Assembly (NCBI GenBank): GCA_965220205.1
Contig: OZ244812.1
Location: forward strand, 1,447,675 to 1,511,674
Direction of reading: 5' to 3'
From: Dehalococcoidia bacterium
Lineage (GTDB): Bacteria; Chloroflexota; Dehalococcoidia; Lucifugimonadales; Australimonadaceae
Length of the DNA stretch: 64,000 nucleotides
Below are positions 2,852 through 64,000 of this stretch, piece after piece. Position 1 is the stretch's first letter. Each line of letters begins with the position of its first letter. The notes beneath the pieces were generated by a model. The model was not told the DNA's origin. It did no database searches and saw only the letters and a list, made by a program, of their open reading frames with translations. Made by a program: the position numbers and the translations under genes.

Positions 2852-4030
2852 CTACGCCCGCATGAGCACTTCGTGGCGCTCCGACGCTCCGACGCGGCTG
2901 GCGTCCGGTAGGTCGATGCGCTTATTCGTGGATGGGTCCCGGCGGACGTTGATGGGCTCTCCGCCATCCTCGACGACAGCCGCCTGCTCGAGCAGCAGGT
3001 CGCGGAACATGATGATCCCGAGGTCGCTGCTCCCGAGGTGTTCTAGGTCGCGCGGTGTGACAGGCCCCTGGGTTGAGACCGCCATGTTGTCCTGCCCGTT
3101 CGCCGTCCCCAGAAGGAACTTGCCGCCCTCGTCGATGCCGGCAACGTCGTAGTAGGGCGTGTCGGCGCCGTGCGCCGACGCGCGATCGGACGGCCGAGCC
3201 ATGTGGAGCAGGAACCACGTGTGAGTATCGTCAATGGGCACGACGTAGATGATGGACCCCGACTTGTTCGGCGAACCCATGAGCGCGACGTTCGGGAAGA
3301 AGACAGACGAGCCTGCGGTCCAACTGTACTCGCTCGCCGACCGGCTCATATGGCGTTCGATGATGCCCTCCTCAAAGAGGTCGAACCCGATGCGCTTCAT
3401 GGGCCCAGGCATGAAGTTCGCGCGGAACCGCGCTGCCTCCTCGGGGTCAGTCCGCTCCAGGATGTACGAGAAGTAGCGGCCGTGCAGCGCGGCGACGTGC
3501 GCGGGATCGAGCATGTTCTCGATGACTTGGAGCCAGTTGCACGCAATGATCGTCCCGTTGGTCTCGCGTAACGCGTGGTTCCACACGAGGACGTTGTAGT
3601 GAGGCACTAGCGGCGCGGGTTCCGGGCCGAGGTAGGCGAAGATGAGCCCGCCGAGCTCCTCGACGCGGTACGCGGGGACTCTGATACGTGAAGCGAACGT
3701 GCTGCTCTCGGGTTCGGTTGGCTGCTCGATGCACTGGCCAGTCGTGTCGTACATCCAACCGTGATAGGCGCAGCGCAGGCCGTGCTTCTCGGGTATGCCG
3801 TAGGCGAGCGACGTTCGCCGGTGCGCGCACGACTCAGCCACCAAGCCGAGATTGGAACTGCCGTCGCGGAACAGCACCAAGTCTTCGCCCAGGAGTCTGA
3901 CAGCCTTGACGGGCTCCTTGTCCAACTGCGCGGAGGCGGCAATGGGGTGCCAGTAGCGCCGCATCAGGAGACCCATAACGGTGCCGGGACCGACCGCCGT
4001 CAGCCGTTCGCTCTCCTCTGCCGTCAGCAT
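2852..4030 (-). CDS. Rieske [2Fe-2S] non-heme iron oxygenase, alpha-only type (phthalate-family/KshA-like)
   Basis: Rieske motif CAHRRTSL...CAYHGW; mononuclear-iron motif NMLDPAHVAALH; 392 aa. Confidence 0.85.
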   Translation of the reverse strand: MLTAEESERLTAVGPGTVMGLLMRRYWHPIAASAQLDKEPVKAVRLLGEDLVLFRDGSSNLGLVAESCAHRRTSLAYGIPEKHGLRCAYHGWMYDTTGQCIEQPTEPESSTFASRIRVPAYRVEELGGLIFAYLGPEPAPLVPHYNVLVWNHALRETNGTIIACNWLQVIENMLDPAHVAALHGRYFSYILERTDPEEAARFRANFMPGPMKRIGFDLFEEGIIERHMSRSASEYSWTAGSSVFFPNVALMGSPNKSGSIIYVVPIDDTHTWFLLHMARPSDRASAHGADTPYYDVAGIDEGGKFLLGTANGQDNMAVSTQGPVTPRDLEHLGSSDLGIIMFRDLLLEQAAVVEDGGEPINVRRDPSTNKRIDLPDASRVGASERHEVLMRA

Positions 4031-8636: not shown

Positions 8637-10492
8637 TGGCAACGACCGGCACGCAGCGGCCCACGGGGAGCCGATCTCTCGGCGCCAACCTCGACGAGAT
8701 ATTCCTCGGGAACATCTACGACGCCACGGTGGTCCGCCGCCTCGTGCGCTACGCGATGGCCTACCGCCGTACGTTCGTCGTAGCGCTGCTTGGCATGGCC
8801 GGCTACATCATCGCCATCGTCAGCCAACCGCTCATCCTCGCGTGGGGCATCGACGGGTTCATCGCGCCCCAGCCCGGCGAGGACCGATTCGGCAATCTCA
8901 CAATGGCGGCTGTCGTCCTGCTGCTGGACACGGCGCTGCTGGGCGTGTCGCAGTACGTCCAATTCCGCGCTCTGGCGCGCCTGAGCACGCGCATCCTGTT
9001 CGACCTGCGCCAGGACATGTTCGTCCACCTCCAGCGACAGCCGACGGCGTTCTATGACCGGAACGAGGTTGGCCGCATCATGTCCCGGGTGCAGAACGAC
9101 GTCCTGGCGCTTCAGGAGTTCATGGAACTGAGCCTGCCGACCATCGCGGACATCCTGCTGCTCGGCGCCATCGCCGCCACGATGCTTGCGACAGACTTCG
9201 ACCTAGCCCTCGTGGCGATCCTCCCGATTCCACTGATGGCGGGGATCATGATTGTGTGGCAGCGCCACGCCAAGCCGACGTTCCTGCGTATCCGCGCAGC
9301 CATCTCCGCCGTGAACGCGAGCCTCCAAGAGGGCATCACCGGCGTCAGGGTCGCCCAGAGCATGAACCGCGAGCCCGTCAACCTCTCCCGGTTCGATCGG
9401 CTCAACACCAATCATCGCAACGCCGCCATCCGCGGCGGCTTCCTCTCCGGGATGCTGATGCCACCGATAGAGATGATCTCGATGGCGTCGATTGGCCTCG
9501 TGATTGTGTTCGGAGGCCAGCGGGTGATCGACGGCGACCTCCAAGTCGGGGTGCTCTTTGCGTTCGTCGTGTTCCTGCTCAGGTTCTTCGAGCCGATCCG
9601 TTTGATGACGATCGAGTTCACGCAGCTCCAGAAGGCGATGGCGTCGGGCGCGCGTATCTTCGAGTTGCTGGACATTGAGCCCGACCTGTCCGACCGCCAG
9701 GGCGCCCAGGCGATGCCCCCCATCCGCGGCCGGGTCGAGTTCCGCGACGTGACGTTCGGCTACGTTCCCGGCATCCCGGTGCTCGAGCACATCAACCTCG
9801 TCATCGAGCCGGGGGAGTCGGTGGCGTTCGTCGGTCTGACCGGAGCCGGCAAGACGTCGATTATCTCGCTGGCCCAGCGCTTCTACGACGTCACGGAGGG
9901 ACAGGTGCTCGTGGACGGCGTGGACGTGCGGGACGTGACTCGCGAGTCGCTGGCGTCGCAGATGAGCGTTGTGCTGCAAGAGCCGTTCCTCTACTCGGAG
10001 TCGGTGCGGGCGAACATCCGGTACAACCACGACGACGTGACGGACGAGCAGGTCGAGGATGCGGCGAAGGCGGTGGGCGCTCACGAGTTCATCACGCGCC
10101 TGCCCCGCGGCTACGACACCGTCCTCGAACAGCGCGGCGCGAACCTCAGCATGGGCCAGCGGGCGCTCGCCAGCATGGCGCGCGCCGTCGTGTCCGACCC
10201 CCGCATCCTGATCCTCGACGAGGCGACCGCGAACATGGACTCGGAGACGGAGCACCGCCTGCAGGAGGCGCTCAAGATCGTACTCAAGGGCCGTACGTCG
10301 ATGATCATCGCCCACCGGCTATCGACAATCACCGGTTCCGACAAGATCGTAGTGCTCGACCGCGGCCGAATCGTCGACGTGGGCACACACCAAGAGTTGC
10401 TGGACCGAGGCGGCGTTTACGCCAAGCTGTACGCCATGAACTTCGACGAGGACGCGCCGCTGGACGATTGGGCGGGCAGCGTTACCATCTAG
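8636..10492 (+). CDS. ABC exporter, fused permease/ATPase (heterodimer subunit 2)
   Basis: Start overlaps the previous stop (ATGA-type coupling); Walker A GLTGAGKTS, degenerate signature LSMGQRAL, Walker B ILILDE. Confidence 0.9.
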   Translation: MATTGTQRPTGSRSLGANLDEIFLGNIYDATVVRRLVRYAMAYRRTFVVALLGMAGYIIAIVSQPLILAWGIDGFIAPQPGEDRFGNLTMAAVVLLLDTALLGVSQYVQFRALARLSTRILFDLRQDMFVHLQRQPTAFYDRNEVGRIMSRVQNDVLALQEFMELSLPTIADILLLGAIAATMLATDFDLALVAILPIPLMAGIMIVWQRHAKPTFLRIRAAISAVNASLQEGITGVRVAQSMNREPVNLSRFDRLNTNHRNAAIRGGFLSGMLMPPIEMISMASIGLVIVFGGQRVIDGDLQVGVLFAFVVFLLRFFEPIRLMTIEFTQLQKAMASGARIFELLDIEPDLSDRQGAQAMPPIRGRVEFRDVTFGYVPGIPVLEHINLVIEPGESVAFVGLTGAGKTSIISLAQRFYDVTEGQVLVDGVDVRDVTRESLASQMSVVLQEPFLYSESVRANIRYNHDDVTDEQVEDAAKAVGAHEFITRLPRGYDTVLEQRGANLSMGQRALASMARAVVSDPRILILDEATANMDSETEHRLQEALKIVLKGRTSMIIAHRLSTITGSDKIVVLDRGRIVDVGTHQELLDRGGVYAKLYAMNFDEDAPLDDWAGSVTI

Positions 10493-10548
10493 CGCGGCCA
10501 TGACGGAGGGCCGCCCCGGCGCTTTCCGGAGGACGGCGAGACTACCTG

Positions 10549-11706
10549 ATGACGCAGAGCTCACCCCACGTTGACGACATTCGCGCCGCTGTGCGCGAGG
10601 TCTGCGGCAAGTACGGGGATGCGTACTGGCGCGGCCTCGACCGTGAAGGAGCCTACCCCGAGGAGTTCGTGCGCGAGATGACCGAGCTCGGCTGGCTCGC
10701 CGCGCTCGTGCCCGAGCAGTACGGCGGGGGCGGCATGAGCGTCGCCGAGGCGTGCGTCATTCTCGAGGAAATCAACCGCTCAGGCGGGCACGGCGCCTCC
10801 TGCCACGCGCAGATGTACACGATGGGGGTGCTGCTGCGTCACGGCAGCGAGGAGCAGAAGGAGCGCTACCTGCCCGGCGTCGCCGCCGGCGATCTCCGGC
10901 TGCAAGCGTTCGCGGTCACGGAGCCGGACGCAGGCTCCGAGACGACGCGCATCCAGACCACGGCGATGCGGCGGGGCGACCGGTACGTCGTCAACGGTCA
11001 GAAGGTGTTCATCTCCCGCGTGCTGCAGTCGGACCTGATGGTGCTGCTGGCCCGGACGACGCCCTACGAGGAGCTCGACGATAAGACGCGGGGCCTGTCC
11101 GTGTTCCTGGTCGACCTCCGGCAAGCGGGCGAACATCTGCGCGTCGAGCCGCTGGACGTGATGTTCAATCACCACACGAACGCCCTCTTCTTCGACGACC
11201 TCGAGGTCCCCGCCGAGAACCTCATCGGCGAGGAGGGGATGGGGTTTCGCTACATCATCGACTCGTGGAACGTCGAACGCATCCTCATCGCTTCGGAGGC
11301 GATAGGCGACGGCGATTGGTTCGTCGAGAAGGCGTCCGCCTACGCCGCCGGACGGGAGGTGTTCGGCCGGCCCATCGGCGCGAACCAAGGCGTGCAATTC
11401 CCCATCGCGCAGGCCTACGCCCACGTCCGGGCAGCAGACCTCATGCGGTCCGACGCGGCGGGCAAGTACGACCGCGGCGAGCGCTGCGGCGCGGAGGCCA
11501 ACATGGCGAAGCTGCTGGCCTCCGAGGCTTCCTGGGAGGCGGCCAACGTCTGCATGAACACCTACGGCGGCTACGCCTTCGCCGCCGACTACGACGTCGA
11601 GCGCAAGTTCCGCGAGACGCGCCTGCTCATGTCCGCGCCCGTCACGAACAACTTAGTGCTGGCGTTCCTAGGCCAGAACGTCCTGGGCATGCCGCGGTCA
11701 TACTGA
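10549..11706 (+). CDS. acyl-CoA dehydrogenase family protein
   Basis: 385 aa; FAVTEPDAGSE, ...YGGYAFAADYDVERKFRETRL, typical ACAD layout. Confidence 0.85.
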   Translation: MTQSSPHVDDIRAAVREVCGKYGDAYWRGLDREGAYPEEFVREMTELGWLAALVPEQYGGGGMSVAEACVILEEINRSGGHGASCHAQMYTMGVLLRHGSEEQKERYLPGVAAGDLRLQAFAVTEPDAGSETTRIQTTAMRRGDRYVVNGQKVFISRVLQSDLMVLLARTTPYEELDDKTRGLSVFLVDLRQAGEHLRVEPLDVMFNHHTNALFFDDLEVPAENLIGEEGMGFRYIIDSWNVERILIASEAIGDGDWFVEKASAYAAGREVFGRPIGANQGVQFPIAQAYAHVRAADLMRSDAAGKYDRGERCGAEANMAKLLASEASWEAANVCMNTYGGYAFAADYDVERKFRETRLLMSAPVTNNLVLAFLGQNVLGMPRSY

Positions 11707-14198: not shown

Positions 14199-15020
14199 CT
14201 ACGTCTCCAACGGCGTGTCGTCGCGGTTGGCCCACTGCCCCATCGAGCCGTCGTACATACAGACCTGGGGATGGCCAATCAGCGTTAGCGCGAACGCTGC
14301 GTGCGCCGCACGCACTCCGCCCTGTCAGTAGACATGGACGGTCGTTTCCGGCGTCACGCCAAGGCCGGCGACAAGCGCTGCGAGCTCGTCAGCCGACTTG
14401 AACGTGCCGTCTTCGTTGACCAGATGCACCCACTCCAAATGCTTGGCGCCCGGGACGTGTCCCACCCGCGCGTTCCCTCGTGAGTTCGCGCCCGTGAACT
14501 CATCCTCCGTGCGCACGTCCCAAATGACGGCGTCGTCCCGGCCAACGGCAGCCTGGAGCTTCTCTGCGGTCGACTCAATGCCGTGGTCCGGCGGCTTCGG
14601 CGTGAAGGCGCCCCCGGGGGCGACGGCCGCAGGGCCCGTCTCGATCGGCCGGCCCTCCGCGGACCACTTGGCCCACCCGCCGTTCAGCACTCTGACGTTG
14701 GTGTGTCCGTAGTACGTGAGCACCCACCACAGGCGCGCGGCGTCCCGGCACAGGAAGCGGTCGTAGCCGACCACCAGCGTATCGTCGCCGATCCCCACCG
14801 ACTCGAACCACGCCTTCGCCTCGTCGGCCGGCGCGACCAGTCTCGTGTTGACGGATCCCTTGATCTGCCATGTCGGGGAGAGGGCGGCGCCGGGGATGTG
14901 TCCGCCCTCGAAGGAGCTCCCGTCTTGGGCCATCTCCACGACCTGCACGTTGGGGTCGCCGAGGCGCTCAGCGAGCCACTCCGTCTCGACTAGCAGATCA
15001 GTCCTCGGGTAATCGGCCAT
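14199..15020 (-). CDS. two-domain rhodanese (thiosulfate/3-mercaptopyruvate sulfurtransferase-like) with in-frame TGA at the catalytic Cys codon: candidate selenoprotein (or recent pseudogene)
   Basis: ATG 15020 preceded by GGAGG. The track ORF ends ...TTVHVY at TGA 14327-14325. The same frame continues QGGVRAAHAAFALTLIGHPQVCMYDGSMGQWANRDDTPLET to TAG 14201-14199. The TGA sits where C of the CxxGxR active-site loop belongs. Confidence 0.75.
14290..14320 (-). other. SECIS-like stem-loop 3' of the rhodanese TGA
   Basis: mRNA GCGGA-G-UGCGUGC-GGC-GCACGCA-GCG-UUCGC; the 7-bp upper stem starts 11 nt after UGA and the G-rich apical loop lies at +21 to +23. Confidence 0.45.
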
Positions 15021-15109
15021 CCGGCGCCTCCGCGTGGACAACTACGGCTGGGAGGAACATGAGCACGTACGCGGGGCCGCTGTCCCCGAATCACCCGGAG
15101 AGCCGTCGC

Positions 15110-43578: not shown

Positions 43579-44837
43579 CCGAGACGGCGCGGAACAGCAG
43601 GCCGCGCGTCGTTGTCACTGGCATGGGAGCGATGACGCCGCTGGGAGAGAGCGTGGCCGAGTTCTGGGAGGGCTTGGTGACGGGCCGCTCAGGCGTCGGC
43701 CCCATGCGGCAGGCGGATGCGACCGACTACCCTTGCCGGGTGTCGGGCGAGGTAAGCGGTTTCGACCCTGAGCGCTACATGGATAAGCGCGAAACCCGGC
43801 GCATGGCCCGCTTCTCCCAACTTGCTGTCGCGGCGGCTACCGAGGCGATGGCGGACGCCGGTCTGAGCCCGGATAGCTTCAACGCCGAGCGCATGGGGGT
43901 TGTGCTGGGCAACGGCAACGGCGGCCTCCCGGTAATCGACGAGAGTATGCGGGTGCTGGTCAATCGGGGCGGGATGCGCATGTCGCCTTTCTTCTTCCCA
44001 ATGATCCTGCCGAATATGGCGGCGGCGAACCTGAGCCGCATCTTCGGCGCGCTCGGCCCGAGCAACACCATTACGACGGCCTGTGCGGCGTCGACGCAGT
44101 CGGTAGGCGAGGCGGCGGAGCTGATCAAACGCGGCGCGGCGGATGTGGTCATCACCGGCGGGACGGAGGCAGGCATCAGCCAGCTCGGGCTCGCGGGGTT
44201 CGCGGTGATGCGCGCGCTCACGACCAAGAACGACGTGCCCGAGCACGCAAGCCGTCCGTTCGACGCTGACCGGGACGGTTTCGTGCCGTCGGAAGGGGCG
44301 GGAATCCTGATCGTCGAGTCGCTGGACCACGCGGCGCGGCGCGGCGCGCGGGTGCTGGCCGAGGTGGTCGGCTACGGCGCATCGTCCGACGGCCACCACC
44401 AATTCCAACCCGACGACGACGGCTCGGGCGCGGCCAGGGCGATACGCGCGGCGCTCTCGGACGCTGGAATCGGGCCGCACGAGGTCGACTACATCAACGC
44501 TCACGGGACATCGACGCCGCTGAACGACGCGTCCGAGACGCTGGCCATCAAGCGGGCGTTCGGAGACGCCGCCTACCGGCTGCCAATCAGCGCTACGAAG
44601 TCGATGATCGGGCATGCGTTGGGCGCCGCCGGCGCGCTGGAAGCGGTGGCGTGTGTGCAGACTGTCCGCACGGGCATGATCCATCCGACGATCAACTACG
44701 TTACGCCCGACCCGGCGTGCGATCTCGACTACGTGCCCAACGAGGCGCGCGCGGTGGATGTGAAGACTGCGCTCTCGAACAGCTTCGGGTTCGGCGGGCA
44801 GAACGCCTGTCTCGTGTTCACTCGATTCGAGGAGTAG
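43575..44837 (+). CDS. fabF: beta-ketoacyl-[ACP] synthase II
   Basis: GTG overlaps the folC stop; active-site context TACAAS, ...NAHGTSTP..., ...SMIGHALGAAG... Confidence 0.9.
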   Translation: MTETARNSRPRVVVTGMGAMTPLGESVAEFWEGLVTGRSGVGPMRQADATDYPCRVSGEVSGFDPERYMDKRETRRMARFSQLAVAAATEAMADAGLSPDSFNAERMGVVLGNGNGGLPVIDESMRVLVNRGGMRMSPFFFPMILPNMAAANLSRIFGALGPSNTITTACAASTQSVGEAAELIKRGAADVVITGGTEAGISQLGLAGFAVMRALTTKNDVPEHASRPFDADRDGFVPSEGAGILIVESLDHAARRGARVLAEVVGYGASSDGHHQFQPDDDGSGAARAIRAALSDAGIGPHEVDYINAHGTSTPLNDASETLAIKRAFGDAAYRLPISATKSMIGHALGAAGALEAVACVQTVRTGMIHPTINYVTPDPACDLDYVPNEARAVDVKTALSNSFGFGGQNACLVFTRFEE

Positions 44838-44905
44838 CGAGGAGCAGTGGGAGCTGCAGCTCCATCCTTTGCGCGCCCAGTCGGCAGCCTGGTATGATGA
44901 GACGG

Positions 44906-45139
44906 ATGAGCACCGAGAGCACACTCGTCGTCTACACACGTCCGGACTGCACCTATTCCGACGCGTTGTTGCACGACCTCAAGAAGGACGATGTTCCATA
45001 CGAGCAGATCGACTTGGAGGAGCACCCGGAGTTCGTCGAAGTGGTTGAGCGGCTCACCGGCGGCGACCGGGTGACGCCGGTCATGGTGGAAGGCGACTTG
45101 GTAATCGTCGGCTACCACGGTATAGGCTGAGCGTTCTAG
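44906..45139 (+). CDS. small glutaredoxin-like protein; C-terminus ...GIG-TGA-Ala-Phe-TAG, candidate U-x-x-stop selenoprotein
   Basis: MSTESTLVVYTRPDCTYSDALLHDLKKDDVPYEQIDLEEHPEFVEVVERLTGGDRVTPVMVEGDLVIVGYHGIG, then TGA (45128-45130) GCG TTC TAG (45137-45139). Starts at 44894 or 44897 are also possible. Confidence 0.7.
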
Positions 45140-45143
45140 AACG

Positions 45144-45162
45144 GACGGGCGGTCCGCCCGTC
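45144..45162 (+). other. SECIS-like hairpin 3' of the glutaredoxin-like TGA
   Basis: GACGGGCG-GUC-CGCCCGUC (8 bp; or 7 bp with loop GGUCC); loop at +25 to +27 from the U of UGA; no trailing U-tract. Confidence 0.4.
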
Positions 45163-45169
45163 ACACCGC

Positions 45170-45248
45170 GGCCCGGTGGTGTAGTCTGGTTCAACACGCC
45201 GCCCTGTCAAGGCGGAGATCACGAGTTCAAATCTCGTCCGGGTCGCCA
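45170..45248 (+). tRNA. tRNA-Asp (anticodon GUC), CCA encoded
   Basis: GGCCCGG UG GUGU AGUCUGGUUCA ACAC G CCGCC CUGUCAA GGCGG AGAUC ACGAG UUCAAAU CUCGU CCGGGUC G CCA. Confidence 0.92.
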
Positions 45249-45301
45249 GTTTCTCATTGCACAGGGGGCGAGAGCCCCTACCCCCACAAGCCCGTCCTCC
45301 G

Positions 45302-45862
45302 TCAGCAGCTTGCCCTCCACTCATCCTCGATGATGGCGTAGTAGTAAGAGTCCCGCCACTGGGCGTCCGACGGGAACTGCCGGTTGCGCAGGTGCAACCC
45401 CTCGCGGCGCATGCCGAGCTTCTCCATGACCCTGTATGACCCCGTGTTGCCCGTGTCGCAGGTTGCGAAGATACGGTGCGCTCCGAGTTGCTCGAACCCC
45501 AGCCGCAGCAGTGCGCCTGCGGCCTCCGTCGCGTAGCCGTTTCCCCATTGGTCGCGACGAAACGCGTAGCCAATCGACGCTTCCCGGCGCCTCGGGTTGA
45601 CCATGCCCACGCGGCATCCGCCGATCAGCTCCCCGCTCGTGGCAAGGGTCACGGCGAGCTCGAACGTAGTGCGCGGTTCGTCCTGCTGGGCCTGGAGGCG
45701 CCGCTCCATGAAGCTGTGCGTCACCGCCTCGGTGTTCGGCGGCAGGGCAAGCCACCGCATGACCTCGGGGTCCGAGCCGTAGCGGTGGACGGCGGTCCAG
45801 TCGTCGTAAACGTAGTCCCGGATGAGGAGCCGCGGAGTGCGGATGGGGTCGATAGTGGGCAT
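45302..45862 (-). CDS. GNAT family N-acetyltransferase (RimJ/RimL-like)
   Basis: RTPRLLIRDYVYDDW...; FRRDQWGNGYATEAAGALLRLGFEQLGAHRI. Confidence 0.85.
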   Translation of the reverse strand: MPTIDPIRTPRLLIRDYVYDDWTAVHRYGSDPEVMRWLALPPNTEAVTHSFMERRLQAQQDEPRTTFELAVTLATSGELIGGCRVGMVNPRRREASIGYAFRRDQWGNGYATEAAGALLRLGFEQLGAHRIFATCDTGNTGSYRVMEKLGMRREGLHLRNRQFPSDAQWRDSYYYAIIEDEWRASC

Positions 45863-53275: not shown

Positions 53276-54538
53276 CTACCCCCTGTCCGCCCCGATGGCG
53301 ACCGCGGCCTCGGCCTCGGCCACCGCGGCAGCCTCGATGCTCTCTTGCTCCATGAGTTCGATGAGCGCGCTCGCCAGCACCTGACCGACCAGGCGTCCGT
53401 CCTCGTCGATGAGCGGGACCGGGCCGGACACGTTCCGCACCAACGGCAGGGCCGCCGACACTGACAGGTCAGCCGGAACCGGCCTTACGTCGTCGGAGAG
53501 GGCGCTGACTACCGTCTCGTCGCCGCGCTGGCTCGCCTCCGCAAGGTGGGCGAAGCTCACCGCGCCGATGTACAGGCCGCGACGGTCGGCAACGAACCCC
53601 GCGACCTCTCCCTGGCCGCCGATCGCATCCATGGCCTCCCGCGGCGACATCGTCGACAGCACCGGGACGACGGGTCGCTGCATCAGCGTGCGCACGGTGA
53701 TCACAGAGGACTTTCGCACGTCACGCACGAATTCGGTCACGTAGTCGTCGGCGGGATTCGCCAGTATCTCCTCGCCCGTGCCGACCTGGATGACTGCGCC
53801 GTCGCGCATGATCGCGATGTGGTCGCCCAGCTTCAGCGCTTCGTTCAGGTCGTGGGTGATGAACATGATGGTCTTGTGCAGTTGCTGCTGCAGCCGGATC
53901 AACTCGTTTTGCATGTCGCGCCGAATCAGGGGGTCGAGCCCACTGAACGGCTCATCCATCAACAGCAGACTGGGGTTGGCGGCTATGGCGCGGGCGAGGC
54001 CCACCCGCTGCTGCATCCCGCCGCTTAGGGTCGACGGGCGGTACTCTTCCCACCCCTTCAGTCCGACCAGCTCGAGCACCTTGCGGGCCCGTTCGGTCCG
54101 CGCGATTTTCTCGATGCCCTGCACCTCGAGGCCCCACGCCGCGTTCTCCTCGACCGTGCGGTGGGGCAGCAGTCCGAAGTGCTGGAAGACCATCGCCGCC
54201 TTCTTGCGGCGGAACTCGATCAGCTCATTCTCGTCGTACCGGAGGATGTCCTCGCCGTCCACCCGGATCTCGCCGAAGGTCGGCTCGATGAGCCGGATCA
54301 GCGAGCGCACCAACGTCGACTTGCCGCTCCCGGACAACCCCATGACGACGAACGTCTCGCCGGGGGCCACGTCGAAGCTCACGTCCCGGAGCGCCAGCAC
54401 CAAGCCGTGGGCCTCGCGGAGCTCGGCTTTCGTCTTGTCACGAATATCCGGCGTGATCTCCGTCGGAGGACGATTCCCGAACAGCTTCCAGAGGCCTCGA
54501 ACGGTCACTCGAGGGTCTACGGGTGGATGGGTCGCCAT
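53276..54538 (-). CDS. proV: glycine betaine/proline ABC transporter ATPase with tandem CBS domains
   Basis: Walker [30 protein letters not shown]; C-terminal CBS pair. Confidence 0.9.
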   Translation of the reverse strand: MATHPPVDPRVTVRGLWKLFGNRPPTEITPDIRDKTKAELREAHGLVLALRDVSFDVAPGETFVVMGLSGSGKSTLVRSLIRLIEPTFGEIRVDGEDILRYDENELIEFRRKKAAMVFQHFGLLPHRTVEENAAWGLEVQGIEKIARTERARKVLELVGLKGWEEYRPSTLSGGMQQRVGLARAIAANPSLLLMDEPFSGLDPLIRRDMQNELIRLQQQLHKTIMFITHDLNEALKLGDHIAIMRDGAVIQVGTGEEILANPADDYVTEFVRDVRKSSVITVRTLMQRPVVPVLSTMSPREAMDAIGGQGEVAGFVADRRGLYIGAVSFAHLAEASQRGDETVVSALSDDVRPVPADLSVSAALPLVRNVSGPVPLIDEDGRLVGQVLASALIELMEQESIEAAAVAEAEAAVAIGADRG

Positions 54539-55140
54539 TTACTTCTCCGCCGTTGGCCTATCCTCTGCAAGCGTTGTGCAAGCCGTCCAAATGGAGAATA
54601 GCGGGGGTGGGGTGCGCTACGTGCGAGCGCAAAGGTCACCGCACGGAAGCGTGACTCAAGTGATAGTGTGTTCCATTCGGCCCGCAGGCGTCGAAGGTCT
54701 TGGCGCCGCCCTCTCCGCGCAGGCTCTACGCCACAGTAGCGATGCGCTCCGCGCAGTGTCAACGTCACGATTCCGCCGTGCCCTCACACGATGTCGCCGA
54801 CTTGCGTGCATGCCTATATCTGTCGGACGAGCCCACCATACAGGCGCGGGCGTCCAGTCCATCGCCTCTCCGCCAAGGCCATAGGTATATACGGCCCGCC
54901 CGACGAACGCCCCGCTCTCCCGGCTGATTTCGTCGGCCAACGCGCCGTCTCACGGTCTATTCCGCTAACCCGCCTACCTGTCGCAACGGGGGCAGATTGG
55001 AGACCGCCCAGAGGCGCTTCAAGATGACGCAGCCAAGAATGACGGAGCGGTAGCGAGCGGTCCGGCCGCTATCCATCGGCCCCTCGCCATGACATCCGCT
55101 CCTTCCGTCAATGCCACGCAACCCCTACCATGCCTGTTGA

Positions 55141-55368
55141 AGCCTGTCCTGAGCCTGTCGAAGGGAACCCTCGAAACCATGGCGCTGGCGCGCCGGGGCG
55201 CTGGCCCGATTTACGAGTAAATGTCGCAAATGTCGCAGAATGTCGCACTATTTTGCCCCTCCACTCGTAAACCCCCTACATTTACGAGTGAAAAACCTCA
55301 CGCTTTGGGCCCATTTCCGGCCATTTTGGCCAATTTTCGTTCAATTCCGTCTCACCCGCCGTCATTCC
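55141..55368. repeat. multi-module structured intergenic repeat, copy 2 (left part; continues at 56416-56458 beyond the IS)
   Basis: Same module order as 21439-21662; 24/25 identity in AGCCTGTCCTGAGCCTGTCGAAGGG. TTTACGAGT (55210), 3 x AATGTCGCA, CCACTCGTAAACC (55261), TTTACGAGT (55281), CCGTCATTCC (55359). Confidence 0.7.
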
Positions 55369-56415
55369 TGTAGATGTCAACTAATTCGTTGACAGAAGCG
55401 CCAAGGACTGGAGGGGGCTCTTGCCCCCGAGGCCTTGGTGGGGCCGCTCCGTGTTGTAGTAGAGGAGGTACTCCACCAGCTCCCGCTGCAACTCTTCCAC
55501 CGACTCGAACGTCGTCTCGTCCAGCAGGTCCTCGTTCAGCGTCCGCCAGAACCGCTCGATCTTCCCGTTGGTCTGCGGCCGGTAGGGCCGCGTGTAGCGG
55601 TGCGTGATGCCCAGCTCCTGGAACATTCGCTCCATCGGGTGGTTGGCCTTGTTGGCCGGCGAAGCCACCTCGGCCCCGTTGTCCGTGAGAATGGCCTCGA
55701 ACCGGACTCCGTACTCGGCGTTCAGCAGGTTGATGCTCTTCAGCGCCGCGAACATCACGCTCAGGCTCTTCAGGTCGTCCACCACCTCCGCCCAGGCCAG
55801 GCGCGTGCAGGCGTCGAGCACCGACACCAGGTAGTGGCGCCGCTTCGCTCCCACGATCAGGTCCCTGCTCAGGTAGTGGCAGTCGAGGTGGCCCAGCTCC
55901 CCGGCACGGGTCTTGATGATCTGGCGCTTGGACTCCCGCATGGGCTTGGTCAACCGGTTCAGGCCGTGGCGCTGGGCGATGGCGTAGATGGTCGAGGGCG
56001 CCGGGGTGTGGGACTTCAGCACCGGCCTGAGTATGGCATAGATCTCGTAGCGGTTGATGCCCTTGCGCCGGAGCTCGAGCACCTTCTCCTCAATGAGGGG
56101 GAGGGTGCGGCGGCTCTTCCACTTGGGCCCCCGCTTACGGGGCAGCAGGGCATCGTCCGCCCCCGATTGACGGTAGCGGTTGTAGTACTTGGCGAAGGTC
56201 TGGCGGTTGGTCCCATGGAAGGCGTAGAAGTCCTGCACGAAGCGGAACTGGGGATGCCGCTTGGCCTTGACCCGTTCGTAGTCCCGGACCAGGAATCGCC
56301 ACTTCTGGACGTAGTTCCGCTCGATCGTGCGGTCATCGCTGTTGTCGCGCATCTTCGCCTCCCGACTGGCTTCATCCCTCACACCAGTCTGTCAGCGAAT
56401 TACCTAACATCTACA
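55369..56415 (-). mobile_element. IS481-family insertion sequence, apparently intact (1047 bp)
   Basis: 28-bp imperfect terminal inverted repeats: TGTAGATGTCAACTAATTCGTTGACAGA at 55369-55396 versus the reverse complement of 56388-56415, TGTAGATGTTAGGTAATTCGCTGACAGA (24/28). 5-bp direct repeat ATTCC at 55364-55368 and 56416-56420; single transposase ORF. Confidence 0.85.
55381..56382 (-). CDS. IS481-family DDE (rve) transposase
   Basis: 333 aa, GTG start; N-terminal HTH region; DDE triad context HLDCHY..., LTDNGAE..., TNGKIERFWRTL; stop lies inside the left IR. Confidence 0.88.
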   Translation of the reverse strand: MRDEASREAKMRDNSDDRTIERNYVQKWRFLVRDYERVKAKRHPQFRFVQDFYAFHGTNRQTFAKYYNRYRQSGADDALLPRKRGPKWKSRRTLPLIEEKVLELRRKGINRYEIYAILRPVLKSHTPAPSTIYAIAQRHGLNRLTKPMRESKRQIIKTRAGELGHLDCHYLSRDLIVGAKRRHYLVSVLDACTRLAWAEVVDDLKSLSVMFAALKSINLLNAEYGVRFEAILTDNGAEVASPANKANHPMERMFQELGITHRYTRPYRPQTNGKIERFWRTLNEDLLDETTFESVEELQRELVEYLLYYNTERPHQGLGGKSPLQSLALLSTN

Positions 56416-56566: not shown

Positions 56567-57481
56567 ATGATTGATGCGGCAGGCGTTCCTGTCGTTCGGG
56601 CCGAGGGGCTGTGGAAGCGGTTCGGCGACCGGACTGCCGTGGAGGATGTCTCGCTTTCCGCTGCGCCCGGCGAGGTGATCGGACTCGTCGGCCCCAACGG
56701 GGCCGGCAAGACGACGACTATCCGGATGCTGCTCGACATCATCCAGCCGGACGCCGGGGAGGTGTCGGTGTTCGGCGCAGCGCTGACTGCGGCTGCGCAG
56801 GAGCGCATCGGCTACTTGCCCGAGGAGCGCGGGCTCTACCGCAGCCTGCGCGTCATCCCGAATCTGTTGTACCTGGCCGAGCTCAAGGGCGTGCCCCGCG
56901 AACGCGCGATGCAACGCGCCGACCAGCTGCTCGATCGTCTCGGGCTCGAGCCGCACCGCGGCAAGAAGGTCAGCGAGCTCAGCCGCGGGCTCGGCCAGCT
57001 CGTGCAGTTCGCCGCTACGCTCATCCACGAGCCGGGCTTCGTCGTGCTCGACGAGCCGTTCAGCGGACTCGACCCGGTGAACGTACGGCTCATGAAAGAC
57101 GTCGTCGCGGACCTGCGCGCGCAGGGCGCCGCAATTATGTTCTCCACGCATCAGATGACGGACGTCGAGGAGCTCTGCGACCGCGTCGTCATGATCGACG
57201 ACGGCCGCGTTATGCTCGACGGGCTACTCAGCGAGATCAAGCGGCAGTTCGCCGGCAGCGAGATCTTCATCGCAAGCGACCACGCGCCCGATGCGATCGA
57301 CGGCGTGCTCAGGTCGCGGCGGGACGGCACGGGCTACGTGTTGCGGCTCGCCGACGGCTACGCCCCGGAGTCGGTGCTGCGAGCGCTGCTCGACCGCGGC
57401 GCGAAGATCGACAGGTTCGAGCTGGCGACGCCGAGTCTCGAGGAGATATTCCTGCGCGTGGTGGAGCGCCGCCATGCATAA
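56567..57481 (+). CDS. ABC-2-type transporter ATP-binding protein
   Basis: Walker A GPNGAGKTT, LSRGLGQLVQFA signature-like, VVLDEPFSGLD. Confidence 0.88.
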   Translation: MIDAAGVPVVRAEGLWKRFGDRTAVEDVSLSAAPGEVIGLVGPNGAGKTTTIRMLLDIIQPDAGEVSVFGAALTAAAQERIGYLPEERGLYRSLRVIPNLLYLAELKGVPRERAMQRADQLLDRLGLEPHRGKKVSELSRGLGQLVQFAATLIHEPGFVVLDEPFSGLDPVNVRLMKDVVADLRAQGAAIMFSTHQMTDVEELCDRVVMIDDGRVMLDGLLSEIKRQFAGSEIFIASDHAPDAIDGVLRSRRDGTGYVLRLADGYAPESVLRALLDRGAKIDRFELATPSLEEIFLRVVERRHA

Positions 57482-58718
57482 GACGTGGCTCGTGACGCGG
57501 CACGAGTTCGCGGTCACCGTGGGCCGCCTCAGCTTCCGCCTCTTCACCGTGGCCGTCCCGCTCATCGTCGCGCTCGCCCTCATAGGTTTCGCCGTCTTTC
57601 GGGCGGTCGCCGGAGACGACGACGAGCCCGGCTTTGAACCGGACGCGGCAGCCGAGGCCGGATACGTCGACCACACAGGCTTGTTCGCGGCGTTCCGCGA
57701 TCAGGGGTCCACGGTGTTCGTGCCGTACGAGGACCAGGCGACCGCAACCGAAGAGCTGCTGGCGGGCGGTCTCGACGCGCTCTACGTGTTCCCGGCGGAG
57801 TTTCCGGAGAACGGCGTCGTCGTCAGGGTCGAGGAGCAGCGGGCGGGCATCGCGGACCTGAACGGCGGCGGGGGCAACAGGGGTCTGCGGGAGTTCATCC
57901 TGAGCAACCTCTACGCAGGACTGGTGGGCCCCGAGGAGATGGCGCGCCTCCTGAACCCCTACAGAGTCACGGTGCTGGAAGTCGACGACTCCGGCGCGTT
58001 GGCGGCGGATGAGACGGACGAACGCCGGCTGCTCTTCTTCCTGGCCACGGGAGGGCTGCTCATCATATCCGTGTTCACGACCGCGGGGTACCTGATGCAG
58101 GGGCTGAGCGAAGAGAAGGAGAACCGCATCATGGAGGTGCTGCTCTCCTCGATCAAGCCGGAGCACCTGATGCTCGGCAAGCTGCTGGGACTTGGGGCGG
58201 CGGGGCTGTTGCAGATGGCCGTCTGGACGACTGCGATGCTGGGAGCGCTGTTCGCGCTCAGCGGCTTCATCGACGTGCCGCTCGACCGGCTCGCGCCGTC
58301 GCCTTTCGGGGTTGTCGTGGCGCTCGCGTACTTCCTACTGGGCTACGCCTTCTTCGGCACGCTTCAGGCGGCGTTCGGGGCGATCACTACGAACCAGCGG
58401 GAGGCGAACAACATGACCGTGTTCGTCGTGCTGCCGGCGTTCGCGCCGCTGTGGTTCCTCCAGGCAATCTTCTCGGACCCGGAGGGGACGCTCGCCAGGA
58501 CCATGAGCTTCGTGCCCTTCACGGCGCCCCTCACGAGTCTGGTGCGCCTGGGCCTCGACGCTATGAGCACGCTCGACCTGCTTCTCAGCCTCGGGGCGCT
58601 GTCGGTCAGCGTGTGGGTCGTCGCGCTCCTCACGACGCGCCTCTTCAAGGCCTACCTGCTCACGTTCGGTCAGCGGCCGCGCGTCGGCGACCTGCTCCGC
58701 ACGCTGCGGGGGCGGTGA
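57474..58718 (+). CDS. ABC-2-type transporter permease (NatB-like, large extracytoplasmic loop)
   Basis: ATG 57474 overlaps the ATPase stop; N-terminal TM, ~190-aa loop, then five TM segments. Confidence 0.8.
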   Translation: MHKTWLVTRHEFAVTVGRLSFRLFTVAVPLIVALALIGFAVFRAVAGDDDEPGFEPDAAAEAGYVDHTGLFAAFRDQGSTVFVPYEDQATATEELLAGGLDALYVFPAEFPENGVVVRVEEQRAGIADLNGGGGNRGLREFILSNLYAGLVGPEEMARLLNPYRVTVLEVDDSGALAADETDERRLLFFLATGGLLIISVFTTAGYLMQGLSEEKENRIMEVLLSSIKPEHLMLGKLLGLGAAGLLQMAVWTTAMLGALFALSGFIDVPLDRLAPSPFGVVVALAYFLLGYAFFGTLQAAFGAITTNQREANNMTVFVVLPAFAPLWFLQAIFSDPEGTLARTMSFVPFTAPLTSLVRLGLDAMSTLDLLLSLGALSVSVWVVALLTTRLFKAYLLTFGQRPRVGDLLRTLRGR

Positions 58719-58802: not shown

Positions 58803-59261
58803 CTAGCGCGCAGCGGTCTCCTGGAACGTGAACCGCGACGCGCCCGCGCCTTGGCCCGAGGCTAGGAACTGTTTGCCTTCCTCCGGGGCCATCGTATCGA
58901 CGTATATCTCCAGCCGGTTGCCGTCGGGGTCGTCGAAGTAGACGCTCCTCGTCATGCCGTGGTCGGACAGGTTGGCAATCTCGACCCCGTGGTCGAGGAG
59001 ACGCTGGTGGAGCTCCTCGAGCTCGGCCATGCCGCCCTCGGCGGCCAACGCCACGTGCCCGAGGCCGGCGTTCCCGCGCGTCGGCTCGCCCCGGACGCTG
59101 AAGAGGCCGATGTCGTGGTGCTGTGTGCCGAACGACATGAACGCCGCGCCCTCGGAGCGATGCACCGTCTCCATCCCCAGCGCGTCCCGATAGAACGCCT
59201 CCGCCTTGTCGACGTCAGTAACCCGGAGCACTACGTGACCGACGCGTTGAATCCTCGCCAC
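58803..59261 (-). CDS. VOC family protein (glyoxalase / extradiol dioxygenase-like)
   Basis: GTG 59261 six nt after GAGGAGGT gives (M)ARIQRVGHVVLRVTDVDKAEAFYRDALGM...; HHDIGLF, GLGHVAL. Confidence 0.8.
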   Translation of the reverse strand: MARIQRVGHVVLRVTDVDKAEAFYRDALGMETVHRSEGAAFMSFGTQHHDIGLFSVRGEPTRGNAGLGHVALAAEGGMAELEELHQRLLDHGVEIANLSDHGMTRSVYFDDPDGNRLEIYVDTMAPEEGKQFLASGQGAGASRFTFQETAAR

Positions 59262-59333
59262 CTCGTCACCTCCTCGCGCGAGCGCGCTTCCAGTGTAGAC
59301 CACCTGTCTATCGTTGTGCTCGACGCGGGGGGC

Positions 59334-59927
59334 CTACCACGCCGCGCCCCATCGGTCCCGGTACGTCACTTCGGCGACGGGCTTGCGGCGGCTGCCGCCG
59401 AGGTGGTCAGGCGGTTGTGGGTAGCCGAGTGGGATCAGCGCCATGATCTCGAACCCCTCCGGCACGCCCAAGAGCTCGGCGACGTCGTCATAGCAGTGCT
59501 GCCAGATCGTCGTGAGCCGCGTCCCGATGCCGAGGGCCGCCGCCGCGAGCATCAGGTTCTGCACGGCCGGATAGATCGAGGCGCCCCGATAGACGTCACG
59601 CCCCACGATCCGCCACAATTCGACGCAGGGCAGGACGACGACGGGGACGTCCTCCATCGCGTCCGTGAACCGCGGCGGCTCGCCGTCGGGCGGAGGGGCC
59701 GACGCTCCTCCGCGCGACCGGCGCAGGCCCTCGAGGTACAGCTCGCCCAGCCTGCGCTTGACCTCGCGGTCCTCGACGACGACGAAGCGCCAGGGCTGGC
59801 GGTTGCTTCCGCTGGGCGCGCGCGTCGCGGCCTCGATAATCCGGTGGAGCGCCGCGCGGGGAATCGGATCGGACTTGAAGTGCGAGACGCCGCGCTGACT
59901 GCGGGCGACGTCGAAGAAGTCAGGCAT
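59334..59927 (-). CDS. nitroreductase family protein
   Basis: ATG 59927 after GAGGAGGAG; RSQRGVSHFKSDPIPRAALHRIIEAATRAPSGSNRQPWRFVVV. Confidence 0.85.
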   Translation of the reverse strand: MPDFFDVARSQRGVSHFKSDPIPRAALHRIIEAATRAPSGSNRQPWRFVVVEDREVKRRLGELYLEGLRRSRGGASAPPPDGEPPRFTDAMEDVPVVVLPCVELWRIVGRDVYRGASIYPAVQNLMLAAAALGIGTRLTTIWQHCYDDVAELLGVPEGFEIMALIPLGYPQPPDHLGGSRRKPVAEVTYRDRWGAAW

Positions 59928-59986
59928 GGGGGCTCCTCCTCGGTTGGTGGGAGGATTGTACGCGTGGGGGATTGCCCGGGGTCGCT

Positions 59987-61264
59987 CTATTCCACGAACA
60001 GCGACAGCTCTACGAGCGCCTCGGACAGCCATCCACTCGAGCTATCGCGCCAGACGACGACCGTGTACACGCCGGGCCTCTGCATGAGACGCCCAACATT
60101 GGCGGAGAAGCTGAAAGCGTCGGCAGTTTCGTTCCAGCTATCGGCGATGACCTCGTTGGAGTCGAGGTTGGAGTAGTAGCGCCCTGGGCCGGGCGGGCTA
60201 AGGATACGTGCGACAGGATCCCTGCAACTGGTCGTAAACCCTCCTCCAATGCAGTAGCTGCGGAGCGCGTCGATCTGCGAGGGCGTCTTGGGCGTGGGCG
60301 GAGGATCATAGGCGATGCTCGCCAGCCCTCCAATGGCGATTCCCGCTTCCCGTTTGGTGAGCGACAACGATAGCACGCCGTTTGCATTGAGGACCGGCGG
60401 CCCGTCCGCCTCAACTGCCCCGCCCTCGAAGTGCTGCACGAACGTCGTCCTCCTGCCGTTCGAGGCGACGCCGATGTTCACGGCTCGATGGCTCTCGCCC
60501 AGGATGTTGTCGCGATGACCCCAGTCCGCGTGGGCGTCGTCGTACATCATCGACTGCTGGTGGTCTGTTATCGACTCAGCAAGGTCCGGAACGATGCATC
60601 GCACGAGCCGCGAGCCGCAGCTCTGAGCGTTCCACTCACGGTCCGTCCAACCACTGGTGGCCGCGTTCTCACCGGCATAGCTCGTGCCGCCAGTTTGGCT
60701 GTACACCATGTACGGCTTCCGCCCGTCCGCCCACCAGTGGCCGAAGTAGTCGTGCGCGAGCATATCCTCGGCGTGCAGTTGCGCTGCGGGGTTCGTGCCG
60801 AGGACGACAGGCGGCAGGCCATGACCGGCCCTATCACGGTTGACGAGCCGGAGGGCAAGGCACCGCAGGGAGTCCAGTTCATCGTTTGATATCCCTGAGC
60901 GCGGCGTGGGCGTTGGGGTCGGACGCGGCGTGGCAGGGAGCCTAGACGTCGTGGTCGGACGCGGCGTGGGAGTGGGCAGGGGCCTCGCGGTCGGGCGTGT
61001 CGTGGGAGTGGGGGTGAACGACGCGGTCAGGCGAGGCGTAGGGGTGGGCCTAGGCCTCGCGGTCGGGCGGGGCGTAGTAGTGGGCCTAACTGAAGCCGCA
61101 ACGTCGCCTGCAACCGTTGGCCTGTCGTCTCGCCCCGTGGCGTATCGAACCTCTTGCTGGAAGTCTGCGACTTGCTGCCGGGCGCCGTCCGAAAGCAGCG
61201 GCGTCGCGGCCATCCCCGCGACCGCGCCGAGGACGAATAGGGCGAGGAGGACGAGATATCTCAC
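59987..61264 (-). CDS. membrane-anchored CAP/SCP (YkwD-like) domain protein with Pro/Thr-rich repeat linker and unknown C-terminal domain
   Basis: Start uncertain (GTG 61264, 14 nt after the upstream stop); TM RYLVLLALFVLGAVAGMAA. PT repeats at 60899-61087; CAP-like LVNRDRAGHGLPPV...HAEDMLAHDYFGHWWADGRKPY. Confidence 0.7.
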   Translation of the reverse strand: MRYLVLLALFVLGAVAGMAATPLLSDGARQQVADFQQEVRYATGRDDRPTVAGDVAASVRPTTTPRPTARPRPTPTPRLTASFTPTPTTRPTARPLPTPTPRPTTTSRLPATPRPTPTPTPRSGISNDELDSLRCLALRLVNRDRAGHGLPPVVLGTNPAAQLHAEDMLAHDYFGHWWADGRKPYMVYSQTGGTSYAGENAATSGWTDREWNAQSCGSRLVRCIVPDLAESITDHQQSMMYDDAHADWGHRDNILGESHRAVNIGVASNGRRTTFVQHFEGGAVEADGPPVLNANGVLSLSLTKREAGIAIGGLASIAYDPPPTPKTPSQIDALRSYCIGGGFTTSCRDPVARILSPPGPGRYYSNLDSNEVIADSWNETADAFSFSANVGRLMQRPGVYTVVVWRDSSSGWLSEALVELSLFVE

Positions 61265-63018: not shown

Positions 63019-63093
63019 TGGTAGCGGGGCCAGGACTCGAACCTGGGACCTTCGGGTTATGAGCCCGACGAGCTGCCACTGCTCCACCCCGCA
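63019..63093 (-). tRNA. initiator tRNA-fMet (anticodon CAU), CCA encoded
   Basis: Reverse complement TGCGGGGTGGAGCAGTGGCAGCTCGTCGGGCTCATAACCCGAAGGTCCCAGGTTCGAGTCCTGGCCCCGCTACCA. It has three G:C pairs closing the anticodon stem and a 1:72 mismatch (U.U), both initiator hallmarks. Confidence 0.85.

Positions 63094-63166: not shown

Positions 63167-64000
<834 letters not shown>

Follow-up and report, generated by a model that had tools for sequence, protein, structure and literature searches.

A predicted UXX-star family 2 selenoprotein gene with a 3′-untranslated SECIS-type hairpin upstream of tRNA-Asp in a Dehalococcoidia bacterium

This analysis concerns a stretch of 64,000 nucleotides (nt) from a Dehalococcoidia bacterium (assembly GCA_965220205.1, contig OZ244812.1, positions 1,447,675 to 1,511,674), hereafter the window, and a short glutaredoxin-like gene on its plus strand whose reading frame meets a TGA shortly before a second in-frame stop. 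Comparison with related genomes makes it very probable that this gene encodes a selenocysteine (Sec)-containing protein of UXX-star family 2, with the TGA read as Sec and a bacterial Sec insertion sequence (bSECIS) located in the 3′-untranslated region (3′-UTR). We describe the locus and its protein family, the comparative evidence for Sec, the alternatives that have to be weighed against it and the chemistry that the protein may perform.

The locus and its protein family

Read directly from the sequence, the ATG at 44906 opens a 74-amino-acid (aa) open reading frame (ORF), MSTESTLVVYTRPDCTYSDALLHDLKKDDVPYEQIDLEEHPEFVEVVERLTGGDRVTPVMVEGDLVIVGYHGIG, which is closed by the TGA at 45128-45130. 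Other possible starts lie upstream, at ATG 44894 or 44897, and gene callers annotate a product of 78 aa, a call that is present in exactly this form on three metagenome contigs. The features of the locus are as follows.

44906 to 45139, plus strand: predicted glutaredoxin-like selenoprotein gene, 77 aa (MSTEST...GYHGIG-U-A-F) and then the true stop TAG, matching NF041211 and the Pfam Glutaredoxin domain
44948 to 44959, plus strand: C15-T-Y-S18 motif (monothiol CxxS) at the N-terminus of helix 1, with C15, Y17 and S18 invariant in the homologue alignments
45128 to 45130, plus strand: TGA predicted to be read as selenocysteine, Sec75; 64 of 65 related loci have TGA here and one has TGC, and natural Cys forms exist
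45131 to 45139, plus strand: two tail codons, GCG (Ala) and TTC (Phe), conserved across the loci, and the true terminator TAG
45144 to 45162, plus strand: predicted bSECIS-type hairpin in the 3′-UTR, with an 8-bp stem, the loop GUC at 45152-45154, 21 nt from UGA to loop and -14.0 kcal/mol
45170 to 45248, plus strand: tRNA-Asp(GTC), found by ARAGORN and by the Rfam tRNA model (65.6 bits over 45170-45245), 7 nt past the hairpin

The positions that a first-pass annotation of the same DNA had assigned to the ATG, the CTYS motif, the TGA, the codons GCG TTC TAG, the hairpin and the tRNA-Asp all agree with the sequence; its description of the Sec as penultimate was mistaken, the residue being third from the C-terminal end.

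The same annotation had pointed to a 'Uxx-star' family of glutaredoxin-like (seleno)proteins. Such a family exists, and the ORF passes the cutoffs of both relevant NCBIfam models. The equivalog model NF041211, 'UXX-star (seleno)protein family 2', requires 100 bits; the 77-aa read-through product, with the TGA position written as Cys, reaches 115.5 bits and aligns end to end with profile positions 1-71 of 71. The 74-aa form ending at the TGA is likewise over the cutoff, at 107.3 bits. The read-through product also exceeds the 66 bits set for the umbrella model NF041212 ('Uxx-star family glutaredoxin-like (seleno)protein'), at 87.3 bits, while the Pfam scan returned just the generic Glutaredoxin domain PF00462 (33.4 bits, cutoff 22.9). 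NF041211 is listed in the literature with the motif GxGU and one Sec, and UXX-star family 2 is credited there to Haft & Tolstoy 2025, mSystems (both as listed in PMC13188914). The window gene shares the GxGU motif, the single Sec, the Sec-x-x-stop architecture and the Chloroflexota clade, and no difference from the family was detected. The architecture of Sec or Cys, two residues and a stop (TGA GCG TTC TAG in the window) recurs in all 65 related loci, and two close Chloroflexota homologues, P0039 and P0103, which are 73-80% identical, already carry the NCBI name 'UXX-star (seleno)protein family 2'. Judged by its sequence, the gene is thus a plain member of NF041211 that displays every testable defining feature, and the finding rediscovers an already known, catalogued family in a clade already annotated by NCBI.

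Neighbouring families are less fitting. UXX-star families 1 and 3 and the HUGP/GUXX-star fusion (NF041114, NF047338, NF045501) have a common glutaredoxin-like core and a Sec three residues from the end, but the window protein gives them only partial matches of 41-56 bits, well under the respective cutoffs of 72, 97 and 325 bits. Family 1 also differs in having two Sec and a UxxT motif (PMC13188914), compared with a Cys-containing CxxS and a single Sec in the window protein. Identity with NrdH-redoxin (TIGR02194) was ruled out by a score of 35.1 bits against a cutoff of 85.75, by CTYS in place of a CVQC-type dithiol and by VGYHGIG in place of WSGFRP; the mycoredoxin model gave 32 bits against a cutoff of 89.5. 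The YruB and classical glutaredoxin models scored far under their cutoffs.

The in-frame TGA and its downstream hairpin

A protein search gave 111 homologues, and at the DNA level 65 loci from species-representative genomes were read, all of them Dehalococcoidia, SAR202 or other Chloroflexota. The annotated C-terminus is exactly ...G(I/V)G in 109 of the 111 homologues, and one (P0110) runs on as ...GIGCAF. The codon that follows the last Gly is TGA in 64 of the 65 loci and TGC in the remaining one (L045, ...GIG-C-A-Y-stop). A second Cys form comes from the DNA of P0110 (L066), which reads GGT TGC GCG TTC TAG and gives GIG-C-A-F-stop. By the general criterion, the 64 TGA loci and these two TGC forms constitute a Sec/Cys pair. 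The U-x-x-stop ending pointed out in the first pass therefore recurs in 64 loci, with C-x-x-stop as its counterpart in L045 and P0110/L066, and no homologue among the loci read ends at GIG with TAA or TAG. The in-frame terminator three codons past the TGA site is, by comparison, TAG in 27 loci, TGA in 25 and TAA in 13. The two codons in between keep their meaning through changing spellings: the first is Ala by all four codons (GCG 31, GCC 4, GCA 2, GCT 1), Ser by both codon families (TCG 7, AGC 8, AGT 4), or Asn, Thr or Glu, and the second is Phe (TTC or TTT) in 63 loci and Tyr in two. A stop that never drifts, Cys as its sole alternative, a selected tail and a freely drifting later stop together form the signature of a translated Sec codon.

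The published bSECIS model (PMC13188914 Fig. 2A) describes a loop of 3-9 nt on a stem of 4-16 bp, a G in the first two loop positions, a spacing of 16-37 nt and a minimum free energy (MFE) of ≤ -7.5 kcal/mol. Downstream of the TGA in the window, the inverted repeat GACGGGCG-GTC-CGCCCGTC occupies 45144-45162, beginning 16 nt past the U of UGA, and this hairpin agrees with the model in all four respects (8-bp stem, 3-nt loop GUC, 21-nt spacing, -14.0 kcal/mol). It also covaries, so that the SECIS prediction suggested in the first pass turned out favourably. Every Sec-type locus has a hairpin of 7-10 bp whose apical loop lies at +20 to +26 from the U of UGA and nearly always begins with GU or GG. 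The model is matched by 58 of 65 Sec-type sequences (64 loci and the window), with spacings of 16-22 nt, compared with 9.3% of background TGAs in the window and 8.0% in the loci; the median hairpin energy across the sequences is -15.3 kcal/mol. The Cys locus L045 has no hairpin of this type.

Support for the helix as an RNA structure comes from an alignment of 46 non-redundant sequences, in which the window's 8-bp helix was compared with column shuffles and slid registers. Paired cells make up 85.3% of the helix, against 53.8 ± 1.9% in column shuffles and a maximum of 53.3% in slid registers. Double-sided changes occur at all eight pairs (position 21-33, for example, is GC in 20 sequences, CG in 16 and AU in eight), and the covariation score of 0.747, against 0.207, was reached by none of 500 shuffles. 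In at least 90% of the 46 sequences the loop opens with G. RNAalifold independently finds the same helix, with compensatory changes at all six of its predicted pairs. Rfam, at its gathering threshold and in a permissive scan of 45080-45270, returned just the tRNA and no SECIS family, a result that is uninformative on bacterial SECIS elements.

With the bacterial SECIS consensus (the bSECISearch model, whose prototype is Escherichia coli fdhF), the window hairpin shares a stem-loop placed shortly after the UGA, a small apical loop with G[U/G] first, the 16-37 nt spacing and an MFE of ≤ -7.5 kcal/mol. It is unlike the prototype in that the whole element lies past the true stop, outside the coding region, and in being of a simple 7-10 bp type without an evident bulged U; it is a predicted SECIS element. 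Since just two codons and a real stop follow the Sec, the SECIS falls wholly within the 3′-UTR, an arrangement that is only mildly unusual and is inherent in the Sec-x-x-stop design of the family. In the proposed mechanism, the UGA at 45128-45130 would be recoded to Sec and the hairpin at 45144-45162 would recruit SelB-GTP-Sec-tRNA(Sec).

The hairpin stands close to a tRNA gene, and the first pass had allowed that it might be only a leader or processing structure of tRNA-Asp. Of 51 loci scanned, 41 have a tRNA-Asp downstream of the gene, among them the Cys-form locus L045. In most of these it lies 40-49 nt from the TGA, but the gap widens to about 60 nt in L053, L055 and L057, to 100 nt in L045 and to about 140 nt in L046, L047 and L049. 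No downstream tRNA-Asp was found in the other ten (L048, L050, L052, L054, L056, L059, L060, L062, L063 and L064), and in all ten of these the hairpin is kept at the same distance from the TGA. The hairpin thus tracks the TGA and not the tRNA, and is not merely a tRNA-Asp leader. An intrinsic (rho-independent) terminator was likewise ruled out, because, as the first pass had noted, no U-tract follows the stem; the sequence there is ACACCGC, and neither terminator-like nor promoter-like sites were found in 44500-45600. tRNA-Asn and tRNA-Ala(CGC) often lie within 1-3 kb downstream in the related loci (L001-L065).

In about 30 related genomes and in the window, the tRNA-Asp starts 40-49 nt past the UGA, that is, 5-14 nt past the hairpin. 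This spacing is too short for a separate promoter, which would place the selenoprotein mRNA and the tRNA-Asp on one transcript, and the tRNA-Asp is probably co-transcribed with the selenoprotein gene. A more tentative idea, to which we attach a rather low probability, is that the SECIS hairpin has a dual role, RNase P cleavage at the 5′ end of the tRNA leaving an mRNA whose 3′ end is the SECIS stem-loop. If true, this would couple 3′-end formation and stability of the selenoprotein mRNA to tRNA processing, and Sec insertion could depend on the processing state of the transcript.

Sec decoding in the lineage and the alternatives to Sec

A second case in the window had been raised by the first pass, a rhodanese, and it proves to be a genuine Sec/Cys pair.

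14199 to 15041, minus strand: homologue of two-domain rhodanese / 3-mercaptopyruvate sulfurtransferase, with a TGA (14325-14327) at the catalytic Cys position, ...VHVY-U-QGGVRA...

The gene was found by a read-through ORF scan that demanded coding-like GC content at third codon positions on both sides of the TGA; a regular-expression search with [UC]..G.R[ST] returned just out-of-frame noise. Its composition is of coding type for 41 codons past the TGA, and residues 7-272 of the read-through product align to positions 3-278 of 281 of the NF008557 profile. The 92 closest homologues are cut exactly at ...VH(V/T)Y, and Cys occupies the position in 23 of 28 full-length homologues (...Y[C]QGG(I/V)RA). 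The TGA has a hairpin with a G-first loop, UGCGUGC-GGC-GCACGCA, at +20. By these sequence features the rhodanese is a second predicted selenoprotein gene in the window.

Evidence for Sec decoding in relatives comes from SelD. In L043, a SelD gene lies 3.5 kb downstream of the UXX-star gene (9764-10813; TIGR00476, 367.7 bits, cutoff 125) and reads SCAG-U-AGK, its in-frame TGA standing where E. coli has Cys17. In the genomes of L015 and L017, too, SelD has the same in-frame TGA (TCAG-U-AGKF), with a conserved hairpin about 30 nt downstream, so that three genomes with a UXX-star gene also possess a SelD with an in-frame TGA at the catalytic position. In L070 and L071, SelD lies at about 9900-10945 and has the in-frame TGA at the Cys17 equivalent; the conserved hairpin past the SelD TGA reads GGACCUC-GGC-GAGGU(C/U)C and lies about 30 nt downstream. 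Because SelD belongs to a selenoneine-like cluster in L070 and L071, its mere presence was not taken to prove Sec decoding; the in-frame TGA was used instead, since a SelD that depends on Sec for its own synthesis implies that Sec insertion works in the genomes concerned.

Several observations were made around these SelD genes. Nearly all SelD homologues among the 120 matches listed are 305-327 aa long, N-terminally truncated by gene callers. Directly after the Sec-containing SelD in L070 (10001-13257 and 17588-18568) and L071 (10001-13260 and 17576-18556) come an FGE-sulfatase/DinB_2 protein and a glycosyltransferase, and an EgtD-like Methyltransf_33 gene is near SelD in both of these related Dehalococcoidia. 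We take this cluster to resemble the senC-senA-senB cluster of selenoneine biosynthesis. Just downstream of SelD in L043 (10858-11664), about 20 tandem P-E-P-R-Q-(T/A) repeats precede a JAMM/MPN-like C-terminal domain with an HSHTHS...SDTD motif.

A number of points weigh against the assignment of a Sec-encoding gene with a 3′-UTR bSECIS. Taken alone, the window hairpin is unremarkable for DNA of 66% GC: its folding z-score is -1.1, 29 of 200 shuffles fold as well, and a bSECIS-model hairpin follows 9.3% of the window's 1530 TGA trinucleotides. What the first pass had called a strong hairpin is hence correct as to position and sequence, albeit not statistically distinctive on its own, and the case must rest on comparison across genomes. 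Among the Sec-type sequences, seven of 65 fall short of the strict limit on energy or contiguity; the stems of all seven are AT-rich or mismatched. The Cys-form negative controls number just two, and L066, with just 17 nt after the stop, has too little downstream DNA to judge and is useless as a control for hairpin absence. None of selA, selB, selC and selD was found in the 64-kb window, in which no ORF of SelA, SelB or SelD size is any of these proteins; no tRNA-Sec was found in the window or in 55 loci scanned; and SelA, SelB and tRNA-Sec were seen nowhere in the DNA examined. The Sec machinery of this exact organism is something that we infer. According to a review, the function of the family is without experimental proof (PMC13188914).

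The simplest alternative is that the TGA is a plain stop, that the product is 74 aa long and that the hairpin is a transcript-end structure or a leader or processing structure of tRNA-Asp. All gene callers annotate the form ending at the TGA, this form passes the model cutoff (107.3 bits), the hairpin stands 7 nt before a tRNA-Asp whose linkage is kept in 41 of 51 loci, and the window hairpin alone is not above chance. A plain stop would, however, alternate between the three stop codons, as the next in-frame stop does (TAG 27, TGA 25, TAA 13), whereas this codon is TGA 64 times with TGC, a sense codon, as the sole alternative; untranslated codons would not keep [A/S/T/N/E][F/Y] through synonymous changes, including both TCG and AGY for Ser; and the natural Cys forms extend through C-A-F and C-A-Y. 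Nor would a structure belonging to the tRNA or to the transcript end be expected to keep a fixed distance of 16-22 nt from the TGA while the tRNA is 40 to 140 nt off or absent, or to lack a U-tract. On these comparisons an ordinary stop is very improbable, and we regard this reading as effectively excluded. It might also be supposed that the UGA is read through but not as Sec, by a near-cognate or suppressor tRNA inserting Trp or Cys, or because UGA is reassigned. Any read-through would explain the conservation of the tail, and the Sec machinery of this genome is not among the DNA read; but UGA is not reassigned, since it is the ordinary terminator of 17 of 52 predicted genes in the window and truly ends the UXX-star gene itself in 25 relatives. 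The sole sense alternative is moreover Cys, the hallmark of Sec/Cys pairs, the site has a covarying hairpin that fits a SelB-type SECIS model, and relatives encode a SelD with the classic substitution of Sec for Cys17. Read-through by anything other than Sec consequently has the slightest probability of the explanations weighed here.

Fold, proposed chemistry and significance

Residues invariant across the homologues include Y10, T11, R12, P13, C15, Y17, S18, T57-P58, G69, Y70, G72 and G74, with T57-P58 at the site of the fold's cis-Pro. The natural Cys form P0110 was modelled with AlphaFold (mean predicted local distance difference test score, pLDDT, 74.8; predicted template modelling score 0.67), and the model has a strand at 5-9, a helix at 14-25, a strand at 31-34, a helix at 39-49 and strands at 57-60 and 63-66. 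This gives the order beta-alpha-beta-alpha-beta-beta, with helix 1 beginning right after the Cys and no C-terminal helix; the last nine residues (67-75) are unstructured, with pLDDT < 50 for 68-72. Among solved structures, the closest folds are those of small glutaredoxins, NrdH-redoxins and mycoredoxin (template modelling scores of 0.65-0.76, 24-34% identity); by sequence, the matches are weak and extend no further than G69-Y70. The solved structures nearest by sequence (1H75, 4HS1, 2LQO and 3IC4) have the same fold, an active site at the same N-terminal position and the cis-Pro, while the window protein differs in having CxxS for CxxC, no WSGFRP, no C-terminal helix and an extra GxG-Sec-x-x tail. 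An alignment of the Sec with the semi-conserved Cys that follows the 'GG' of classical glutaredoxins was considered and found unsupported: G69-Y70 matches the SGF of NrdH's WSGFRP, and the Sec lies five residues further on, on a tail with no solved counterpart. The protein is, as modelled, a minimal thioredoxin-fold core without the usual C-terminal helix, extended by a glycine-rich arm that would bear the Sec.

In proteins of the thioredoxin fold, the active-site Cys lies beside the loop that follows the last strand. With this loop and a flexible arm of five residues, Sec75 could reach Cys15, which favours a Cys15-Sec75 couple. The protein would then act as a small thiol/selenol oxidoreductase through a selenenylsulfide between the two residues, which we hold to be the most likely chemistry. 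A C-terminal Gly-Cys-Sec-Gly redox arm is known from mammalian thioredoxin reductase, where, as proposed here, the Sec is carried on a flexible, glycine-flanked C-terminal arm near the stop and may shuttle electrons to or from a buried Cys centre. Unlike that enzyme, the window protein has no vicinal Cys-Sec pair, and its Sec would partner with Cys15, at the N-terminal active site within the one small domain; the folds are unrelated and the SECIS is bacterial and not eukaryotic, so that the comparison is one of analogy only, not of homology.

It is also conceivable, albeit less probable, that Sec is inserted but is not paired with Cys15, serving instead as a metal or metalloid ligand or as a selenium or sulfur carrier, for example together with the Sec-rhodanese or in selenium trafficking. 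A role as a metal or metalloid ligand has been suggested for the family (PMC13188914); the active site is a monothiol CxxS and not CxxC, a Sec-rhodanese lies in the same window, and a selenoneine-like cluster adjoins SelD in relatives. On the other hand, the gene is not flanked in the window by any gene for metal resistance or transport, its neighbours there being folC, fabF, the tRNA-Asp and a GNAT acetyltransferase, and the upstream folC-fabF synteny is only weakly kept (fabF is adjacent in 12 of 65 loci); neighbours and synteny give no functional clue. The invariant Cys15 and cis-Pro58 in a glutaredoxin/NrdH fold are typical of redox-active members and speak for the Cys15-Sec75 couple.

Elsewhere in the window, an IS481-family transposase on the minus strand (55381-56382) scores 206 bits, just under its cutoff of 224; it is flanked by gene-free gaps (54538-55381) and may represent an insertion sequence adjoining proVWX-like betaine transporter genes. 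The 3′ part of a 23S rRNA gene occupies 63167-64000 on the minus strand and continues outside the window; a tRNA-Met (63019-63093, same strand) follows closely downstream. Three ORFs of good coding composition, at 57291-58718 (plus strand, 475 aa), 2852-4030 (minus strand, 392 aa) and 58959-60176 (plus strand, 405 aa), matched no NCBIfam model at the thresholds applied.

Both NCBIfam and the literature already contain the family, with its name and its Sec-x-x-stop architecture, and the gene represents no new kind of system. The quantitative covariation of the hairpin, the linkage to tRNA-Asp and the near-universal truncation in the records might go beyond published work. A literature search for selenoprotein plus SAR202 found no paper. 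An immediate consequence is one of annotation: for this gene, its approximately 110 database homologues and the rhodanese, nearly every deposited protein is truncated, and, as the records end at the TGA, the predicted catalytic Sec residue is missing from them. For the biology of the lineage, the two predicted genes indicate that this SAR202/Dehalococcoidia lineage uses selenium in at least two genes within one 64-kb window, which bears on selenium use by marine Chloroflexota. Relatives add a Sec-containing SelD and a possible selenoneine-type cluster; if the cluster in L070 and L071 is indeed of that type, these bacteria would make selenium-containing small molecules as well as selenoproteins.

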